A DNA stretch of 24,000 nt from Alkalihalobacillus sp. LMS39 (GTDB lineage Bacteria; Bacillota; Bacilli; Bacillales; Bacillaceae_F): positions 4,577,171 through 4,601,170 of the forward strand of contig NZ_CP093300.1 in NCBI RefSeq assembly GCF_022812285.1. Reading direction: 5' to 3'. Of this stretch, positions 1,317 through 20,659 are shown piece after piece. Positions within the stretch are counted from its first letter, which is position 1. Every line of letters begins with the position of its first letter. The translations under genes were made by a program, and so were the position numbers. The notes beneath the pieces were generated by a model. That model saw only the letters and a list, made by a program, of their open reading frames with translations. It was not told the origin of the DNA and made no database searches.

Positions 1317-1516
1317 ATAGCGGAACTTGTCTATCGGACATACGTTCCGCTATTTTTGTTAAATAGGGCCTTTTTGAAAATCTTACGGACATCAGTTCCG
1401 TTATCTTATGAAATAGTATGGTTTCGTTGCTTTTTTTCGTCGTTTAACGGAACTGATGTCCGATAGCGTCTTATAAACGTTAATTTTTCATGAAATAGCG
1501 GAATACATGTCCGATA
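1317..1516. repeat. Structured intergenic repeat, copy A (185-bp core 1332..1516 plus an extra half-module 1317..1331)
   Basis: Modules start at 1332 (tatcggacatacgttccgctat), 1383 (ttacggacatcagttccgttat), 1444 (ttaacggaactgatgtccgata) and 1495 (atagcggaatacatgtccgata), giving spacing 51/61/51. It lies between the convergent MCP (stop 1300) and alaX-like (stop 1528) genes. Confidence 0.9.
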
Positions 1517-5020: not shown

Positions 5021-5365
5021 TCAACGAGCATTTAGATTTTCACGCTTTTTTCGCTTTTTATTAGATTTCATTTTTAAAACAAACTGACATAGAAATGCCG
5101 ATAATATACCCACCCAAAGGAGAACCTGACTCGTGAATAAAGAAATATCCTTTAAGTTATACGCCATACTGTCTATTAATAAGAGAGTTAACAAAATGTA
5201 AAACGCGAATATGCAACTTTTCCTCCATAGAACAGCATCACGCTTTGATTCTTCTTTAAAAAATATACCCACAACAACACCTGCTTCTTTCTCAGTTTTC
5301 ACACAACATGAACTGTCGTTACTCATTAGGGACATAGTATCATAGTGACCAGTAGTTGGATACAT
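5021..5365 (-). CDS. Hypothetical small membrane protein with a lysine/arginine-rich C-terminus
   Basis: The ORF track gives 5021..5410, but its first 15 codons approach or overlap repeat copy B. ATG 5365 has AGAGGT about 10 nt upstream. There are two clear TM helices (CIFAFYILLTLLLIDSMAY and VLLWVGILSAFLCQFVL) and a KSNKKRKKRE tail. The start is uncertain. Confidence 0.5.
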   Translation of the reverse strand: MYPTTGHYDTMSLMSNDSSCCVKTEKEAGVVVGIFFKEESKRDAVLWRKSCIFAFYILLTLLLIDSMAYNLKDISLFTSQVLLWVGILSAFLCQFVLKMKSNKKRKKRENLNAR

Positions 5366-5409
5366 TAAAAACGATACCTCTAGACGTACAGCTAATTGTC
5401 TCAGATTCA

Positions 5410-5592
5410 AACGGACATGTGTTCCGCTATTTTATCTAAAATAGCGTTTTTACAATTTCTATCGGACATCTGTTCCGTTAATCTAGTATTTTCGCCCGCG
5501 CTAACTCCAGAAAAGAGGAGAATAGCGGAACACATGTCCGATAAAAATGAAAAACACCTATATTCCGCTATATAACGGAATAGATGTCCGAA
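5410..5592. repeat. Structured intergenic repeat, copy B
   Basis: Modules are aacggacatgtgttccgctat (5410), tatcggacatctgttccgtta (5460), aatagcggaacacatgtccgata (5521) and ataacggaatagatgtccgaa (5572). I estimate about 85% identity to copy C by eye over the whole length. It lies downstream of the bglH terminator. Confidence 0.9.
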
Positions 5593-5614: not shown

Positions 5615-5650
5615 AAAAAAATCCCCTACGCACATCATGTACGTAGGGGG
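5615..5650 (-). terminator. Rho-independent terminator of the bgl operon
   Basis: On the minus strand: CCCCTACG (5649..5642), an 11-nt loop, CGTAGGGG (5630..5623), then A and TTTTTTT (5621..5615). It starts 9 nt after the bglH stop. Confidence 0.8.
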
Positions 5651-5658
5651 AACTTCTT

Positions 5659-7125
<1,467 letters not shown>

Positions 7126-7136
7126 TCATTTTATGA

Positions 7137-7159
7137 AAAGGGGGAGAGCCCCCCAAAAC
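7137..7159 (-). terminator. Short GC hairpin with flanking T-runs between bglP and bglH (possible partial terminator or processing site)
   Basis: The minus strand reads TTTT GGGGGG CTCT CCCCC TTTT. That is five G-C pairs plus a tetraloop. It lies within the 66-nt bglP-bglH spacer. Confidence 0.3.
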
Positions 7160-7167
7160 ACACGTAA

Positions 7168-9039
<1,872 letters not shown>

Positions 9040-9064
9040 TTAGTAGTTTTTGTTTCGTTCAATG

Positions 9065-9129
9065 AAAAAAACCTAAATTGAGCCTATTGTTTAAGCTCAA
9101 TTTAGGTTTTGCCTGATTCGTCACAATCC
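9065..9129 (-). promoter_or_regulatory. RAT (ribonucleic antiterminator) overlapping an intrinsic terminator, upstream of bglP
   Basis: The minus-strand RAT is GGATTGTGACGAATCAGGCAAAACCTAAA (9129..9101), matching the B. subtilis BglG/SacY-family RAT consensus GGATTGTTACTG..CAGGCAAAACC. The terminator stem is AACCTAAATTGAGC (9108..9095) / GCTCAATTTAGGTT (9083..9070), followed by a T-run. The 3' end of the RAT overlaps the 5' arm of the terminator. Confidence 0.85.
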
Positions 9130-9141
9130 TAAATGTGTATT

Positions 9142-9972
9142 TTATTTTTTTACAACTCTTTCAATATGAATCGTTAAATATAAAAGCTCTTCTTCTGTTA
9201 ATTCATAATCATATTGTTTTTCTACGAACTTTTTAATTTTTTGCGAACACTTATGCGCTTCTGGGTATTTGCCTTTAATAACATTTAACAAGTCATCACC
9301 TTGCTCATTTTGATAATGATTTCCCTTTACGAGACGCTGCGCAAAAAATTTCAAATGGGTAATAAAACGATAATAATTTAATGAAGTTTCATCAAACTCA
9401 ATTTTAAAATGATATTTCACAACCGTTAAAATATCTTGAATGACCTTTGTCATATCAACAATATTATGCATATCCTCATTTAATTGAGCATTCACAAGAT
9501 GTAGGGCAATAAACCCGGCCTCATCTTCAGGAAGAATAACGTTAAATTGGTCAAATATCATATTTAACGCTTCAATGCCAATCTCAAACTCTTCTTTATA
9601 CAGCTGCTTCGTTTCCCAAAGCAATCCATTTTTCACGGGAATGTTTTTATTATGCCGTTCTACCGCAAAATGAAGATGGTCTGTAAGCGAAATGTAAATG
9701 CTATCATTTAACTTCTTGCCTAATTCAAGCTTAGCATAATTAATGATTCTCTCCGATAATTCCATATATTCTAGAGGAATATCCGCAATCAACGTCTTAA
9801 ACTTTTTTGTGATGTCCTTGTCTTCTAACGTGAAGATTTTATCAATTTGTTCATTTGCCACTTCATCCCCAGCTCGCTTTTGAAAGGCAATGCCTCGCCC
9901 CATCACGATAACTTCCTGGTCATCTTTATTTGAAACAATGACATTATTATTTAAAATTTTGACAATCTTCAC
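9142..9972 (-). CDS. licT: BglG/LicT-family transcription antiterminator (CAT RNA-binding domain + two PRDs)
   Basis: The N-terminus VKIVKILNNNVIV...GRGIAFQK is the CAT domain, followed by two PRD repeats. The start is GTG 9972 with GGAGGTG 6 nt upstream. The ORF-track extension to 10098 runs through the leader RAT/terminator and is rejected. Confidence 0.9.
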   Translation of the reverse strand: MKIVKILNNNVIVSNKDDQEVIVMGRGIAFQKRAGDEVANEQIDKIFTLEDKDITKKFKTLIADIPLEYMELSERIINYAKLELGKKLNDSIYISLTDHLHFAVERHNKNIPVKNGLLWETKQLYKEEFEIGIEALNMIFDQFNVILPEDEAGFIALHLVNAQLNEDMHNIVDMTKVIQDILTVVKYHFKIEFDETSLNYYRFITHLKFFAQRLVKGNHYQNEQGDDLLNVIKGKYPEAHKCSQKIKKFVEKQYDYELTEEELLYLTIHIERVVKK

Positions 9973-9998
9973 TTGAAACACCTCCACCACAATCATAT

Positions 9999-10064
9999 AA
10001 AAAGGCAAAACCATATACTTGTGTAGCAAGTAATCGGTTTTGCCTGATTTAACAGTTACAATCC
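9999..10064 (-). promoter_or_regulatory. RAT overlapping an intrinsic terminator in the licT leader
   Basis: The minus-strand RAT is GGATTGTAACTGTTAAATCAGGCAAAACC (10064..10036). The terminator is GGCAAAACC (10044..10036) / GGTTTTGCC (10012..10004), followed by TTTTT (10003..9999). Confidence 0.85.
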
Positions 10065-10086
10065 GTTCATGTATGCGCTTTTTTTC

Positions 10087-10115
10087 ATCATACAACACGT
10101 TTTTTTAATTTGCAA
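10087..10115 (-). promoter_or_regulatory. Candidate sigma-A promoter of the licT-bglPH operon
   Basis: On the minus strand: TTGCAA (10115..10110), a 17-nt spacer, TATGAT (10092..10087). It sits about 20 nt upstream of the leader RAT. Confidence 0.6.
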
Positions 10116-10170: not shown

Positions 10171-10354
10171 AACGGACACTTGTTCCGCTATTTCAACTAA
10201 AATAGCGTTTTCACAATTTCTATCGGACATCTGTTCCGTTAATCTAGCATTTCACCCGCGCTAAGTCCTGAGATGAGGCGAATAGCGGAACACATGTCCG
10301 TTAAAAATGAGAGACAGCTATTTTCCGCTTAAATAACGGAACAGATGTCCGATA
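10171..10354. repeat. Structured intergenic repeat, copy C
   Basis: Modules are aacggacacttgttccgctat (10171), tatcggacatctgttccgttaa (10221), aatagcggaacacatgtccgtta (10281) and ataacggaacagatgtccgata (10333). It begins 15 nt downstream of the lipoprotein gene stop. Confidence 0.9.
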
Positions 10355-10852: not shown

Positions 10853-11419
10853 CTATTCTTTTGGCGTTGCATAAATGATATACCGTTCTGGTGCATTCCC
10901 AACAAAATTAAACGGATAGCATGTAATAACAGTCAGAACTTCATCCGGACTTGTTGAACGAATAACCGTCCGGTCGTCTGCATCGACGATTTCCGTATCT
11001 TGAATGATGTATTCATAGTCACCGTATGGCATTTCTACAATAAAAGAATCGCCAATTTCAAGCTCACCTAATTTTGTAAACACGGTATCACGATGACCAG
11101 ATAGAACAACTTGATCAAGCTGACCTGGAAAGGCAGTGCCTGGATAGTGGCCAACACCACGCATTAACTCATCTTCATCTACACCATATACAATTGGCAA
11201 TTCTCGGTCCAGAGCAGGAATTTGTAATATCCCAATCGTGTCACCGATTTCAGCTGTAAAATCATTAGGGTCATATTCTTCGTCTACTGTTTCCAAACCA
11301 ACACGTGCTTCAACTAAGGCTTGTTCTTGCAGCAAATTCGATTGCCAAATTTGCCATGCACTAAATGCAATTAGAATAACTCCCCCACCCATTAATAAGA
11401 AGGAAAAAAATTTACCCAT
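10853..11419 (-). CDS. Sortase (class D-like transpeptidase)
   Basis: 188 aa with an N-terminal membrane anchor. It has the catalytic His motif LSGHRDT, the catalytic Cys motif LTVITCYPF (TLxTC-type) and a conserved Arg in APERYIIYA. Its ATG overlaps the TAA of the upstream LRR gene by 1 nt (TAATG). Confidence 0.85.
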   Translation of the reverse strand: MGKFFSFLLMGGGVILIAFSAWQIWQSNLLQEQALVEARVGLETVDEEYDPNDFTAEIGDTIGILQIPALDRELPIVYGVDEDELMRGVGHYPGTAFPGQLDQVVLSGHRDTVFTKLGELEIGDSFIVEMPYGDYEYIIQDTEIVDADDRTVIRSTSPDEVLTVITCYPFNFVGNAPERYIIYATPKE

Positions 11420-12531
11420 TACATCAACTTCTTTCTCCTTTTTGAAAAGGCAAATGCTACTGTTCCAATTACAAACATACTTGCCCCGACTATAAGAAAA
11501 TTATACATGCTTGTCGCCGTTTTTGGAAGCGGTTTTCCTACTTCTTCACTTTTTAATTCCTTATTCACTTTTGTTGTTTCTGGTTTAACTTCCTCTTCCA
11601 CATTTTTACCTTCCGTTATAATATGGTCTCCTTTTTTTTCTTCAATAGTTGGTTTTGTAACATGCACAGGACTTTCGATTTCTTCTTCTAGATTCTCTTC
11701 TACTATTTCCTCATCTAGATTCTCTTCATCCTCTATTGTTTCTTCTTCTCGGTTGTCAGTTACATCTTCTTGAAGTGGAAGAGTAGGACCCCCTACTAAT
11801 ATAACAACCGTAGAGTTTTGCCAAGGATTATCTAATATCATATCAATTGCGAATATATACCATGTATCTGGATCCAAATTTTCTACTTTGTAGCTGTTCG
11901 TCTCTTTTATATTTACGTTTTGCACGTTAGAATTTTCTCTTAGAATGCTTCTATCTGTTAGATACTCTACCGGGAAATGAAATTCCCACTCTAATGTCAT
12001 TGAACTTTCAGTCGCATCGACGATTTCAAAAGAAAGCATATTGTCAAAAATAACAATTACTTCTTTTAAAAACAGTTCTTGTAATACATCATTTTCTTTT
12101 GTCCCATCTTCAAACACAAGAGGATTTTCATAAATATCAACATACTTTAAACTTTCCATCGTCAACAACACATCAATATTTTGTATAGTGCCGTTTGAAA
12201 GTTTAAGAACCTCTAAATCCGATAAGCTACTAAGAGGAGAAAGCTCTGTAATGGAATGGTTATGTATAGCTAAATGTTTAAGGTTCTTTGCATACTCTAG
12301 TCCATGTAAACTGGTAGGACCATCAATTTCCCATATTTCTAACCTTTCCAACGCCAATAAATCTCTATCATATATTGGTCCACTTGGAATGTTTAAAGTT
12401 TGTCTTACTGCATTTTCAAGTACTGCACTTTCGAATACAACTTCTTCTTGAGCCGTTTCTGCACTAACAGTTGATATAAATAGAATATTTACGATGAAGA
12501 CTACTAAAAATATAAATTTAAATTTCCCCAT
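11419..12531 (-). CDS. Cell-wall-anchored surface protein: signal peptide + leucine-rich repeats + Fn3-like domain + acidic linker + LPKTAT sorting signal
   Basis: It has a signal peptide (FLVVFIVNILFISTVSAETAQ) and internalin-like ~22-residue LRRs (LKHLAIHNHSITELSPLSSLSDLEVLKLSNGTIQNIDVL). An Fn3-like segment follows (SSMTLEWEF...YKVENLDPDTWYIF). Then comes an E/D-rich linker. The C-terminus is LPKTATS + hydrophobic helix + KRRKKLM. Confidence 0.85.
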   Translation of the reverse strand: MGKFKFIFLVVFIVNILFISTVSAETAQEEVVFESAVLENAVRQTLNIPSGPIYDRDLLALERLEIWEIDGPTSLHGLEYAKNLKHLAIHNHSITELSPLSSLSDLEVLKLSNGTIQNIDVLLTMESLKYVDIYENPLVFEDGTKENDVLQELFLKEVIVIFDNMLSFEIVDATESSMTLEWEFHFPVEYLTDRSILRENSNVQNVNIKETNSYKVENLDPDTWYIFAIDMILDNPWQNSTVVILVGGPTLPLQEDVTDNREEETIEDEENLDEEIVEENLEEEIESPVHVTKPTIEEKKGDHIITEGKNVEEEVKPETTKVNKELKSEEVGKPLPKTATSMYNFLIVGASMFVIGTVAFAFSKRRKKLM

Positions 12532-12614
12532 ATCATCTTCTCCTTTTTTAGCAATTCTTCTATATTATACTAAAAAATAATCAAATATAGAGATTTTCTA
12601 GTAGAATAGTTAAA

Positions 12615-12634
12615 CCCCCTGATTTTTCAGGGGG
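12615..12634 (-). terminator. Hairpin terminator after the chitinase gene
   Basis: CCCCCTG (12615..12621) / CAGGGGG (12628..12634) form a 7-8 bp stem around a T/A-only loop. On the minus strand it is followed by only TTTAAC, so the T-tract is weak. Confidence 0.5.
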
Positions 12635-12642
12635 TGAAATGA

Positions 12643-14619
12643 CTAATCATGCAAATACAACTTTCTTCTTTTTAAAATATATAGTAACGTTCCAGCTAGT
12701 GTCAGTACACTTCCTACTACTAAGTACGTATAAAAATTTGTCGCTGTTTTCGGAAGCTTCTTTCCTTCTTCCTTCTCTTCTTTTTTCTCATTTTCCTTGT
12801 TGTCATTTACTGGCGGGACAGTACCTTCGTCTTTATCTTTATCTTTATCATTGTCTTCTTCTTCATCCTCAACCGGAGGCATTGGAACGCTTGGCTCTTT
12901 TTCATCATCATCTGTCGGTGGTGTTGGTGTCACAGGTGCTGGTGGCGTTTGCCCGAAATTTAATCCTTCAAATAACACATCGAGTAATGTTCCATTTTTA
13001 TCACCGTGAAATTCCCAAAACATCGCTCCACCTAATTGTAAATCTTGAATATGAACGACTTTATGAGCCATTGACTCCGCATCATCATAAGAGATGAAGG
13101 TACCTGTTTCTTCGTTAAATAAGAACGGAACTTTTGCAACATCATTCCAATAACGGATATAGCCATTTTGATTAATATAGTTGCTTTCAAGGTCTTGGAA
13201 ATCGTACACACCAGGCTCCCACGTTCCAGGTGGTGCTGGTCCTGTACAGTTTGCATATTGACCATAAATCGGTGTTCTTTCTATCTCTTGCTCTTCTTCA
13301 GCCGTTTCTTCCATGTCTTCTACAATTTCTTCTTCTGTTTCACGCAATTTTTCAGTTTCTTTGGATTCTGCTTCTACTTCTTCTGTTTCATCTGTTTCTA
13401 TTATTTCTTCGTTTTCTACTTCTGTCTCTACTTCTTCCACCGATTCTGTTTCTTCTTGTTGTTCTTCATCTACCGTTCCTTCATCTTCATTTATATTTTC
13501 TCGTTCGTCAGTATCGGTCCCATCGTTAGATTCCGTTGAAGTGACTTCTAGTTGTTCTACACTCTCTTGACTCGGATTTTCGACGATTTCCTCATAAGCG
13601 CACCCACCCCAAGCTCGGCCGTAAAAAGGAACACCCATGACGAGTTTTTCTGGGGGAACACCGTGGTTTATGTGCCCTTCCACTGCGGCCGCAACATTAA
13701 ATACTTCAGCACTAGGAACTCCCGCTTCTTTTGCAGCTTCGTCAAAATACAACGGAGCATTATGACCACTAATCGCTTGCCAGCCTCCATTAAAGTCATA
13801 TGTCATAATATTAATAAAGTCTAGGATTTCGGCGATTTTTTCCATTTCATTGTTTTCAAGATATGTTGGACTCGCACTAGAGGCAATCGTTAATAAATAG
13901 CGTTTCCCATCTTCTTCTCCTGCTTTATCAAGCGCATCTCGTACCGCTTGCAACAGAAGCGTATGGTTTTGCTTATCAAGAGGGGAGCGGCTATTTCCCG
14001 GCATTCCACCACTTACTGGATATTCCCAGTCAATGTCAACGCCATCCATTTGATAAGTACGGATAAAATCAACGGCCGATTGCGCAAATGTTTCGCGTGT
14101 TTCAGCTGTCATCGCTACATCAGAGAAACGATTCGACCACGACCATCCTCCAACTGAAATTAAAGTTTTCAAATGTGGATGCTTTTCTTTTAGTTTAACA
14201 AGCTCGTATAAATTCCCTGCAAACGGTTGACCTTCCTCATATCTTCCATATTGACTATCTGTATCAATCCACGGATCTCCTAATACGATCGTTCCATTTG
14301 GGACATCAATGACTTCTTCACCAGGACCTTGACAAGGGCTTGTCCCTGCCCATGTGTCTGGATTTCCCCTTTCTCCATTCCAGCAAATATCAGCAAACGC
14401 GTAATTAATATGGGTGACTTTGCTTGCATCAATGTCTGCCGGAAAATACTGCCTTTCGTATGCAGACCATGACGTATAATAGCCCACGATTTTTTTGTAA
14501 TCCCCCGCTTTTGCTTTCACTTGTTGCGTCGACATCAATGGGATAAATAATGAAAATACGAGTAACAAGCTTACTAGAATCATAACCCATTTCCGATCGA
14601 CAACCGCATGTCTCATCAT
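12643..14619 (-). CDS. GH18 chitinase, sortase-anchored (LPKTAT), with a ~105-aa acidic insertion inside the catalytic domain
   Basis: It has a signal peptide, the GH18 motifs SVGGWSWS and DGVDIDWEYP (DxxDxDxE catalytic motif), MTYDF, GVPFYGRAW and GAMFWEF. The C-terminus has a P/T and D/E/K-rich linker, then LPKTATN + TM + KRRK. GGAGGA SD 6 nt before ATG 14619. Confidence 0.9.
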   Translation of the reverse strand: MMRHAVVDRKWVMILVSLLLVFSLFIPLMSTQQVKAKAGDYKKIVGYYTSWSAYERQYFPADIDASKVTHINYAFADICWNGERGNPDTWAGTSPCQGPGEEVIDVPNGTIVLGDPWIDTDSQYGRYEEGQPFAGNLYELVKLKEKHPHLKTLISVGGWSWSNRFSDVAMTAETRETFAQSAVDFIRTYQMDGVDIDWEYPVSGGMPGNSRSPLDKQNHTLLLQAVRDALDKAGEEDGKRYLLTIASSASPTYLENNEMEKIAEILDFINIMTYDFNGGWQAISGHNAPLYFDEAAKEAGVPSAEVFNVAAAVEGHINHGVPPEKLVMGVPFYGRAWGGCAYEEIVENPSQESVEQLEVTSTESNDGTDTDERENINEDEGTVDEEQQEETESVEEVETEVENEEIIETDETEEVEAESKETEKLRETEEEIVEDMEETAEEEQEIERTPIYGQYANCTGPAPPGTWEPGVYDFQDLESNYINQNGYIRYWNDVAKVPFLFNEETGTFISYDDAESMAHKVVHIQDLQLGGAMFWEFHGDKNGTLLDVLFEGLNFGQTPPAPVTPTPPTDDDEKEPSVPMPPVEDEEEDNDKDKDKDEGTVPPVNDNKENEKKEEKEEGKKLPKTATNFYTYLVVGSVLTLAGTLLYILKRRKLYLHD

Positions 14620-14896: not shown

Positions 14897-15080
14897 TATC
14901 GGACATTCATTCCGCTATTTCAGACAAAACAGGCATTTTCAGGTTCTTATCGGACATCTGTTCCGCTATTTGCCCAAATGAGCAGTCAAACTACCTTGTT
15001 TGGTTAAGATAACGGAATAGATGTCCAATACATCTCAGAAACTGCTATTTTCATTAAAATAGCGGAACAGATGTCCGTTA
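14897..15080. repeat. Structured intergenic repeat, copy D
   Basis: Modules are tatcggacattcattccgctat (14897), tatcggacatctgttccgctat (14948), ataacggaatagatgtccaata (15009) and atagcggaacagatgtccgtta (15059), giving spacing 51/61/50. It lies downstream of the exonuclease gene terminator. Confidence 0.9.
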
Positions 15081-20474: not shown

Positions 20475-20659
20475 GTTCGGACATATGTTCCGCTATTCTC
20501 GTCTAATCTCACTTTTTTCATAATCTATCGGACATCTATTCCGTTACTTACATTAACCACTTCTAGTTTCAGCATGATTTGATGAAATAGCGGAATACAT
20601 GTCCATTACGATTCGTAAAAGGGGCATTTTCCATACTATAACGGAACAAATGTCCGATA
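20475..20659. repeat. Structured intergenic repeat, copy E
   Basis: Modules are gttcggacatatgttccgctat (20475), tatcggacatctattccgttac (20526), atagcggaatacatgtccatta (20587) and ataacggaacaaatgtccgata (20638), giving spacing 51/61/51. It lies downstream of the ABC-2 permease gene. Confidence 0.9.

Follow-up and report, generated by a model that had tools for sequence, protein, structure and literature searches.

The five ~185-bp intergenic repeats in a 24,000-nt stretch of DNA from Alkalihalobacillus sp. LMS39 (the whole of which is referred to here as the window) belong to a dispersed and apparently undescribed Bacillales family, and this family is tied to one conserved single-copy gene. 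The product of that gene is a ~215-aa protein with what looks like a putative Vsr/DUF559/MTES_1575-type PD-(D/E)xK nuclease domain followed by a C-terminal winged helix-turn-helix. Our preferred reading, to which we assign a probability of roughly 0.6, is a REPIN/RAYT-like partnership built from unrelated parts, in which a four-site duplex array is paired with a nuclease-winged-helix protein whose gene lies between arrays of this type.

Elements of the window

Each of the five elements, designated A to E, is made up of four modules (Table 1). The window was scanned with a degenerate 18-nt module core pattern, CGGACAYNNRTTCCGYTA, with up to 2 mismatches allowed. Twenty matches were obtained, against 0.03 predicted by shuffled sequences, and they were distributed precisely four to each element interval, with zero outside. 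The modules of A to E have the consensus TAnCGGACATnnRTTCCGyTA and are arranged two against two, cores 1 and 2 being located on the plus strand and cores 3 and 4 on the minus strand in every copy. Core start-to-start distances were 51, 59 to 60, and 50 to 51 bp. Five copies of four modules each, with the second pair inverted, had been described in the initial annotation, and this description was reproduced in full. The fixed geometry that it reported also held, but its middle distance of 61 bp shortens to 59 to 60 bp when counted by core starts, since a different module start had been chosen on the inverted arm.

TABLE 1 Elements A to E, the terminator next to element B, and orthologous copies in A. 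bogoriense. The gap is the distance in plus-strand coordinates from the element end to the stop of the minus-strand ORF.
Feature	Sequence	Position	Core starts and strands	Setting or description	Gap (bp)	Identity to window copy
Element A	LMS39 window	1332..1516	1335+, 1386+, 1445-, 1496- (0 mismatches in all)	Between convergent genes: MCP-like ORF (+, end 1300) and AlaX-like ORF (-, stop 1528)	12	
Element B	LMS39 window	5410..5592	5412+, 5463+, 5523-, 5573-	Past the bglH stop	67	
bglH intrinsic terminator	LMS39 window, minus strand	5623-5649		GC-rich; element B just beyond		
Element C	LMS39 window	10171..10354	10173+, 10224+, 10283-, 10334-	Between 143-aa lipoprotein-like ORF (stop 10369) and licT	15	
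Element D	LMS39 window	14897..15080	14900+, 14951+, 15010- (1 mismatch), 15060-	Past the stop of the DEDD 3'-5' exonuclease gene	56	
Element E	LMS39 window	20475..20659	20478+, 20529+, 20588- (1 mismatch), 20639-	Past the stop of the ABC-2 permease gene	44	
A ortholog	A. bogoriense L128	15546-15725				89%
B ortholog	A. bogoriense L128	11513-11690				82%
C ortholog	A. bogoriense L127	17097-17276				91%
D ortholog	A. bogoriense L127	10716-10895				85%
E ortholog	A. bogoriense L127	5135-5315				87%

All but one of the window genes are encoded on the minus strand. Every element is intergenic and lies 12 to 67 bp past the stop codon of a minus-strand gene, in agreement with the limit of ~70 bp given earlier. 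Elements B and C bracket the bgl operon, are 4.7 kb apart and belong to the same subfamily, with 88% identity over the whole element. A central spacer common to these two copies alone had been reported; it was 86% identical over 80 nt, and no other pair in the window was alike in this region. The remaining window copies showed a mutual identity of just 63 to 72%. A contig of the Logan assembly of the same organism (L001) ends inside element C, as is expected of a multicopy repeat.

No tRNA or tmRNA gene was found in the window, and a search of its whole length against Rfam at gathering thresholds gave 0 matches. A permissive Rfam search with element B yielded miRNA-hairpin noise only, at 27 to 30 bits compared with a gathering score of 100. 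The comparison with curated families that had been proposed as a check thus turned up no Rfam family matching the element.

Orthologous copies in A. bogoriense

Three proteins of the window share clusters of 90% identity or more with proteins from Alkalihalobacterium (Alkalihalobacillus) bogoriense, and in that species the sites orthologous to all five window copies are occupied (Table 1). For the pairs C, D, and E, the divergence between LMS39 and A. bogoriense was 8.3% in modules, 16.5% in spacers, and 7.9% in other intergenic DNA. With 88% identity, element B is nearer to C than to the copy at its orthologous site (82%), a sign that gene conversion may have taken place between these two copies on either side of the bgl operon.

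A family of four-site elements in Bacillales

A two-module pattern was scanned over one genome per GTDB species and matched at least 120 stretches. Rescanning of the matched loci gave at least 131 complete four-module elements, at least 124 of them outside LMS39, in about 20 species at least. Among the matches listed, the hosts are Bacillaceae and Paenibacillaceae: A. bogoriense, Rossellomorea marisflavi, Salibacterium, Gracilibacillus (three species), Texcoconibacillus, Heyndrickxia, Pontibacillus, Neobacillus, Pseudoneobacillus, Aquibacillus, Ornithinibacillus, Salsuginibacillus, Alteribacillus, and several Paenibacillus species. The proposal of a dispersed family, as opposed to a local duplication, is therefore borne out by intergenic copies at gene 3' ends in many genomes.

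The geometry of the family is 51/59/51 bp in 92 of the 131 elements listed, and the others deviate by 1 to 2 bp. All four modules have in common the extended consensus T-A-n-CGGACAT-n-t-R-TTCCG-Y-TA-TTT and face inward. The 21-bp module is a pseudo-palindrome in which 7-bp arms, TAnCGGA and TCCGyTA, surround an asymmetric CATnnRT. M1 and M4, the outer modules, present one site in inverted orientation, and conservation ends 3 bp beyond them.

With regard to gene context, 36 elements were found in convergent, 58 in tandem, and 4 in divergent intergenic regions; the nearest stop was a median of 70 bp away and the nearest start a median of 168 bp. Their neighbors are unrelated genes in different genomes. 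In an orthologous Gracilibacillus pair, as in the case of element B, the element is positioned just after a canonical GC-rich terminator and does not replace it.

The number of copies per genome ranges from the gene-flanking ones only to roughly 10^2. A density of ~35 copies per Mb was estimated for A. bogoriense by a rough zero-truncated Poisson approach, compared with which the window is a dense patch (about six times denser). The expectation of hundreds of copies per genome, which had been drawn from the five copies in 24 kb, is thus plausible as an order of magnitude, but the density of the window overstates the number. Tandem arrays in R. marisflavi consist of an amplified 222-bp unit; since this unit includes a flank, the arrays are of no use for defining the element ends. 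A candidate for a cargo-carrying or autonomous version at locus L036 was rejected, as it consists of two ordinary elements 6 kb apart.

Neither 72,556 plasmids nor 50,697 phage records gave a BLASTN match to element B, and IMG/VR, scanned by pattern for the element, was likewise without a match. A literature search from the angles of the motif, MITEs, REP/REPIN-RAYT, and DUF559/MTES_1575 found the family undescribed in about 8 million openly searchable full texts and preprints. The element can be placed among dispersed extragenic palindromic repeats that have a flanked cognate gene, and, to the extent searched, neither Rfam nor the literature describes its link to the protein presented below. 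There is a substantial chance that it represents a mechanistically new class.

The partner gene is flanked by elements

A tblastn search that began with a chance synteny placed a 214-aa ORF, with 72 to 75% identity, immediately before an element in Texcoconibacillus, in Ornithinibacillus, and in a Paenibacillus alvei MAG. The ORF belongs to a ~215-aa protein family with 957 database matches, which is 72 to 82% identical across Bacillaceae and Paenibacillaceae, is nearly always present on one contig per genome, is annotated as "transcriptional regulator," and has no Pfam domain. Four further loci, in R. marisflavi, P. baekrokdamisoli, Virgibacillus necropolis, and Niallia oryzisoli, were picked by protein identity. 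In these an element begins 7 to 34 bp past the stop codon, and three of the four also have one or two upstream elements. The gene-flanking elements of P. baekrokdamisoli, V. necropolis, and N. oryzisoli are the sole ones in 20 kb.

In total, an element follows the stop codon of the ~215-aa gene by 7 to 71 bp in 7 of 7 loci from seven genera (L084, L094, L002, L122, L123, L125, and L126), and an upstream element is usual too. LMS39 also encodes the protein (P0316), outside the window. In the Logan assembly of the same run, its gene is carried on a 991-bp contig, both ends of which are diverged four-module copies with 51-bp spacing. Including LMS39, elements flank the gene in 8 of 8 loci. Species that appear in both the element and the protein lists are R. 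marisflavi, T. texcoconensis, O. salinisoli, A. koreensis, Gracilibacillus sp. D59, and Neobacillus sp. LXY-4. None of the three ORFs adjoining element B, of 129 aa, 263 aa, and 153 aa, is related to the partner protein.

The nearest neighbors of the ~215-aa protein sort by host family in 28 of 30 cases, and the gene appears to be vertically inherited at the family level. It should be noted that strong conservation, single copy, and apparent vertical inheritance of the protein would also fit a host-adopted function.

These data bear on two suggestions of the initial annotation, namely, an analogy with REP/BIME/REPIN elements and a search for an IS200/IS605-type tnpA or another gene flanked by the same modules. 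Elsewhere in its genome, LMS39 does have a cognate gene, in single copy and with the modules on its flanks. It is not an IS200/IS605-type RAYT gene; its product resembles a DUF559/MTES_1575-like nuclease fused to a winged helix.

Domains and distant relatives of the partner protein

An exhaustive phmmer search yielded 385 clusters at the 50% identity level, among them many full-length relatives with 28 to 42% identity. Pfam was searched with 36 aligned members, of which 20 matched MTES_1575 (REase_MTES_1575) and 18 matched DUF559, with a best E value of 2.5e-7. All of the matching members are distant relatives. The close ~215-aa family is connected to them by phmmer E values of 1e-41 to 1e-18 and is itself below every Pfam threshold. 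Many of the 36 members also gave C-terminal matches to MarR/IclR-type winged helices. The C-terminal winged helix was recognized by PDB profile search and by Foldseek, and in the Foldseek comparison with the PDB it was the only part recognized (E of ~1e-3). The AlphaFold model (mean pLDDT of 83) has three N-terminal helices, a beta-rich alpha/beta core, and the winged helix.

A Vsr-like PD-(D/E)xK motif is visible in the alignment as D71, E84-x-(D/Q)86-G, and H91, and the conserved residues are E59, D71, E84, and H91. The wider family additionally has an (L/V)RF...D(I/V) strand. Within the motif IEI(D/Q)G, the close family carries Q86 where its relatives have D, and due to this change the nuclease could be altered or inactive. 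Searches of the partner protein against NCBIfam, PADLOC, and PHROGs returned nothing useful, and no Y1_Tnp match was found.

In three distant relatives that were looked up, with 28 to 38% identity, the gene is accompanied by different modules, and the ~51-bp spacing is retained. The gene of a 38% relative is followed, from its stop codon on, by TTCCGYTA-type palindromes at 51/40/51 bp. In a spore-former, the gene of a 28% relative lies beside mutSL and cotE and has four copies of a TTAAGTGTGGT...ACCGCACTTAA palindrome on each side, spaced by 52/63-64/51-52 bp. The gene of a 35% relative from a high-GC organism precedes a pair of CCTTATnGnTkGACATAAC motifs at a spacing of 52 bp, after which the contig ends. 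Protein and modules therefore covary: layout and spacing of ~51 bp are kept while the site changes with the protein, which is the pattern expected if the protein recognizes the sites.

Constraint on phased duplex sites

The inverted elements are predicted to fold into very stable long hairpins, with z-scores of -6.5 to -9.4, and this is a trivial result of inverted identical sites. The identity of spacer 1 to the reverse complement of spacer 3 was 0.44 within elements and 0.43 between elements. At variable module positions, arm-to-arm identity was 0.54 within and 0.47 between elements for M1-M4 and 0.48 and 0.45, respectively, for M2-M3. No covariation of the variable module positions was detected for M1-M4 or M2-M3, and no self-complementarity of the central spacer was seen. 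Since there is no excess of complementarity within elements, pairing is not the selected property. Selection for a long hairpin, in RNA or in single-stranded DNA, was rejected on this basis.

The modules themselves are conserved. When one half of an element was matched exactly, the nonascertained half had 3 mismatches or fewer in 144 of 151 cases for M3 and 136 of 151 cases for M4, compared with a median of 8 in random DNA. Selection on the module sites is strong. Spacers of the A. bogoriense copies were 43% identical to one another, compared with 30% after shuffling, and reached a maximum of 68%.

A/T tracts in the spacers recur with a period of 10.25 bp, at a power of 2.5 compared with 0.26 ± 0.02 in shuffles. 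The weak similarity of the flanking spacers that had been pointed out earlier is genuine and consists of these phased tracts. With a phasing of 10.25 bp, the 51-bp spacing within an arm corresponds to five helical periods. Phased A/T tracts together with four sites have the signature of a bent or wrapped duplex that would present putative protein sites on a defined face, and the modules are probably protein-binding sites. From the fixed geometry, the initial annotation had argued for a constraint on structure rather than on sequence. This view was not upheld: a hairpin is not what is maintained, the arms being equally complementary within and between elements, and conservation falls on four sequence-specific sites, helically phased within an A/T-tract-phased duplex.

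Terminator-like hairpins occur inside element B (two) and, weakly, inside A and are absent in C, D, and E. No other recognizable terminator was found from the stop codon to the element for A, C, D, and E. A conserved role as internal terminators was rejected, since such hairpins are present in only 1 or 2 of the 5 copies.

Proposed mechanism and its alternatives

We infer that the ~215-aa protein may bind the modules, cleave DNA, and render the elements mobile. Each module would be occupied by a protein dimer by way of the winged helix. Phasing and bending of the spacers would then allow the four bound sites to form a single compact nucleoprotein complex on which the nuclease domain could act, so that elements would be copied, moved, or maintained. 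Copies would survive at positions that tolerate them, a short way past genes and their terminators. A bolder version of this partnership is tentative and, in our estimate, falls somewhat short of even odds. It holds that a PD-(D/E)xK nuclease-winged-helix protein copies or moves ~185-bp four-site bent arrays as a new class, with many coevolving lineages across a Bacillales-wide and wider range (385 clusters at 50%), and that it represents an independent REPIN/RAYT-like invention, possibly with a new transposition or homing chemistry.

Several observations count against mobility. No direct repeat of 3 to 9 bp was above chance at the element boundaries (8 boundary offsets from 0 to 7 and 9 lengths), which gives no indication of a target-site duplication. 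No empty site was found. The five window copies are retained orthologously, and most copies within a genome are old, as indicated by spacers in A. bogoriense that are 68% identical at most. The D-to-Q change of the nuclease motif points in the same direction. A host-adopted, nonmobile role is therefore a serious rival, which we regard as unlikely overall but well ahead of the other alternatives. It supposes fixed arrays bound by a domesticated winged-helix protein, serving as insulators, nucleoid-structuring sites, 3'-end barriers, or replication-transcription barriers. The arrays would have spread by rare duplication or gene conversion, and the nuclease domain would be vestigial or repurposed. 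Conserved modules, a single-copy protein that keeps 72 to 82% identity between two bacterial families and groups according to host family, and phased A/T tracts suggestive of a wrapped complex are all in keeping with such a role, as are the lack of target-site duplications, the signs of gene conversion between B and C, and the tandem amplification in R. marisflavi. However, a copy number that spans gene-flanking elements only to ~10^2 per genome is that of an expanding repeat and not of a fixed regulon. Elements also adjoin unrelated genes in different genomes, and the flanked-gene layout is kept even where protein identity has dropped to 28% and the modules differ, which is the mark of a self-contained genetic unit.

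If the elements were ordinary MITEs, they would be deletion derivatives of an insertion sequence with a DDE transposase, and the ~215-aa gene would merely be a frequent neighbor. Their inverted terminal modules, small size, intergenic location at gene 3' ends, and strong folding are typical of MITEs, and a weak TA preference at both ends recalls IS630-type targets. The flanking TA, however, occurs equally at internal modules and is therefore part of the site, not of a target. Apart from the absence of a target-site duplication, modules never bracket longer cargo or a transposase gene in ~1 Mb of flanking DNA, and the element has no match in plasmid, phage, and viral collections. Neither the 120 eight-kb loci nor these collections contained a full-length parent with the same ends and a transposase. 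The MITE explanation, which also leaves unexplained the linkage in 8 of 8 loci and the covariation in distant relatives, is improbable.

Slightly less probable still is an element that acts at the RNA level, as a 3' untranslated region structure, a bidirectional terminator, or an mRNA stabilizer, through the long hairpin or the small internal ones. Its appeal lies in the location a median of ~70 bp after stop codons, the enrichment between convergent genes, the very stable predicted folds, the two terminator-like hairpins of B, and the lack of another recognizable terminator before A, C, D, and E. These features are outweighed by the absence of compensatory variation between arms and by the restriction of internal terminator-like hairpins to just 1 or 2 of the 5 copies. 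Moreover, B and the Gracilibacillus copies come after a canonical terminator, A/T phasing at 10.25 bp is a property of duplex DNA, and Rfam has no match. Termination may be a side effect of the elements. Local duplication or chance, for which the 88% identity of B and C at a distance of 4.7 kb could be cited, can practically be dismissed in view of 20 module matches where 0.03 are expected, the identity of only 63 to 72% among the other copies, and the occurrence at many unrelated loci in about 20 species at least.

Comparison with known systems

The proposed pairing of array and nuclease-winged-helix protein is closest to the REP/BIME/REPIN-RAYT systems of Proteobacteria. Common to both are short imperfect palindromes in inverted groups, extragenic copies at gene 3' ends in numbers from a few to hundreds per genome, one single-copy and largely vertical cognate gene flanked by repeats, and protein subfamilies that each have their own repeat sequence. 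The enzymes differ: RAYT is an IS200/IS605-like HUH Y1 protein (tnpA_REP), whereas the partner here appears to be of the DUF559/MTES_1575-type PD-(D/E)xK kind with a winged helix. REP palindromes are tagged at one end by a conserved tetranucleotide, GTAG or CGTC (Di Nocera et al. 2013, PMC3733652). Neither tag is found at the ends of the 21-bp module consensus. In contrast to REPINs, the present elements are fixed four-site arrays of 51/59/51 bp with helically phased A/T tracts, are hosted by Firmicutes, and show no selection for hairpins, so that the substrate looks like duplex DNA and not like single-stranded hairpins.

Bacterial MITEs such as Correia/NEMIS, ERIC, RUP, bcr1 of the B. cereus group, and EFAR of enterococci resemble the family in their length of 100 to 200 bp, inverted ends, intergenic position, strong predicted folding, and tendency to break assemblies. 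They differ in that the family has neither a target-site duplication nor a parent DDE insertion sequence that could be found, conserves only its four internal and terminal sites while the rest has diverged nearly to saturation, and possesses a dedicated partner gene that is not transposase-like. The bcr1 and EFAR elements are probably distinct from the family.

Among the distant full-length relatives, similarity to DUF559, Vsr-like, and REase_MTES_1575 proteins is given by Pfam matches and by the D...E-x-(D/Q)-G...H motif. The order of N-terminal helices, nuclease, and C-terminal winged helix-turn-helix, along with the flanking arrays, is particular to this group. No DUF559, Vsr, or MTES_1575 member is known to be linked to dispersed repeats.

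Firmicutes are regarded as poor in REP/RAYT-type systems, and the known repeat-domesticated enzyme partnerships are essentially from Proteobacteria and always involve HUH Y1 enzymes. The family is a concrete and testable second example, with a 21-bp site, a four-site architecture, and a highly conserved candidate protein. It also provides some of the large DUF559/MTES_1575 group with a functional context and concerns a ~215-aa protein that is misannotated as a transcriptional regulator in hundreds of genomes. If the nuclease does mobilize the arrays, DNA mobility would gain a new mechanism, and the protein with its site would form a compact pair that is programmable. On the practical side, the element family explains assembly breaks in host genomes.

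Known operators were compared with the module as well. The LexA (Cheo) box, CGAACN4GTTCG, was rejected, as the module has an invariant GGAC (G in 99 to 100%) in place of the required GAAC and an asymmetric extension. Chi (AGCGG) and other Bacillus operator consensuses likewise misfit at invariant module positions.

Arrays of ~20-bp sites with fixed helical phasing are further known from the ends of Mu and Tn7 (several 22-bp transposase sites), from res sites, and from the internal resolution site of Tn4430/Tn5401 (four TnpI motifs). There, DNA bending is needed for one nucleoprotein complex, as would be the case here. Such arrays form internal or terminal parts of kilobase-sized elements with genes for DDE, serine, or tyrosine recombinases, whereas here the array is the whole element and the sole linked protein is a small nuclease-winged helix-turn-helix candidate. 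The module half ATGTCCG(A/T)TA may resemble the TnpI motif of Tn5401, ATGTCCRCTAAY.

Sequence relationships and variants of the repeat element

The two copies of the four-module repeat that bracket the bgl operon, B and C, belong to a single subfamily, being 88% identical and having their central spacer in common. Element B is closer to its neighbor than to its own ortholog in the sister species Alkalihalobacillus bogoriense, to which its identity is 82%. This relationship between adjacent copies suggests either gene conversion or that the bgl operon was formerly delimited by a duplicated element.

Elements were also found in tandem. The arrays in Rossellomorea marisflavi and at locus L062 contain at least six elements with a period of 222 bp, and a 37-bp linker is conserved from unit to unit. 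Conservation of this linker shows that the arrays come from amplification of the element together with its flank, not from repeated insertion. Length variation was observed in a pair of A. bogoriense elements, whose central spacing is 68 bp instead of the usual 59 bp, with the change confined to the middle spacer.

In the elements flanking the gene for the predicted nuclease-winged-helix partner protein, the two modules proximal to the gene were consistently degenerate, with three to five mismatches (downstream elements at loci L094, L125, L126, L123, and L002; both flanks at L132), and the distal pair was intact. This degeneracy could reflect decay or tuning of self-binding. Both elements flanking the partner gene of strain LMS39 are a diverged variant, CGGyCAsAGsAGCsGYTWAT. 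At the locus of the 28%-identity relative of the partner protein (L130), a perfect 22-bp tandem duplication immediately precedes the downstream four-module array.

Coordinates of elements and neighboring features
Feature	Locus	Position	Strand	Remarks
Element B	Window	5410-5592		One side of bgl operon
Element C	Window	10171-10354		Other side of bgl operon
licT-bglP-bglH operon	Window	5659-10098		Between elements B and C
129-aa ORF	Window	5021-5410	Minus	Start exactly at element B edge
Terminator-like hairpin, 19 pairs	Window	9068-9110	Minus	Between licT and bglP
Short GC hairpin	Window	7140-7154	Minus	Between bglP and bglH
Class D sortase operon	Window	10853-14619		A. bogoriense counterpart, L127 11174-16595
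Two 51/68/51 elements	L105	3343-3530 and 4582-4769		A. bogoriense
Tandem element arrays	L030 and L110	7597-8000 (L030) and 1-1040 (L110)		R. marisflavi CP033051, about 527.6-529.0 kb
Further tandem element array	L062	2718-3650		
Perfect 22-bp tandem duplication, GATGATGCATGTTAATGGACGA x2	L130	5698-5741		Begins at stop codon of 28%-identity relative

Genes surrounding the elements

GC skew is negative across the whole window (1-24000), and the minus strand carries all of its genes except one. The window therefore lies within a single replichore, and its genes are co-oriented on the complement of the given strand.

The hairpins in the two intergenic regions of the bgl operon are probably its LicT-controlled RAT/terminator switches. 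For the ORF abutting element B, the 3' two-thirds is kept in A. bogoriense, the 5' part differs by indels of 32, 14, and 5 bp, and no gene is called at the counterpart in that genome. Any genuine gene here would be shorter than this ORF, with its start well downstream of element B.

The sortase operon encodes a pair of LPxTATN-sorted proteins, a GH18 chitinase, and an LRR/internalin-like protein. The last of these is 370 aa long in LMS39 and 833 aa long in A. bogoriense, a difference that reflects a large indel within its repeats.
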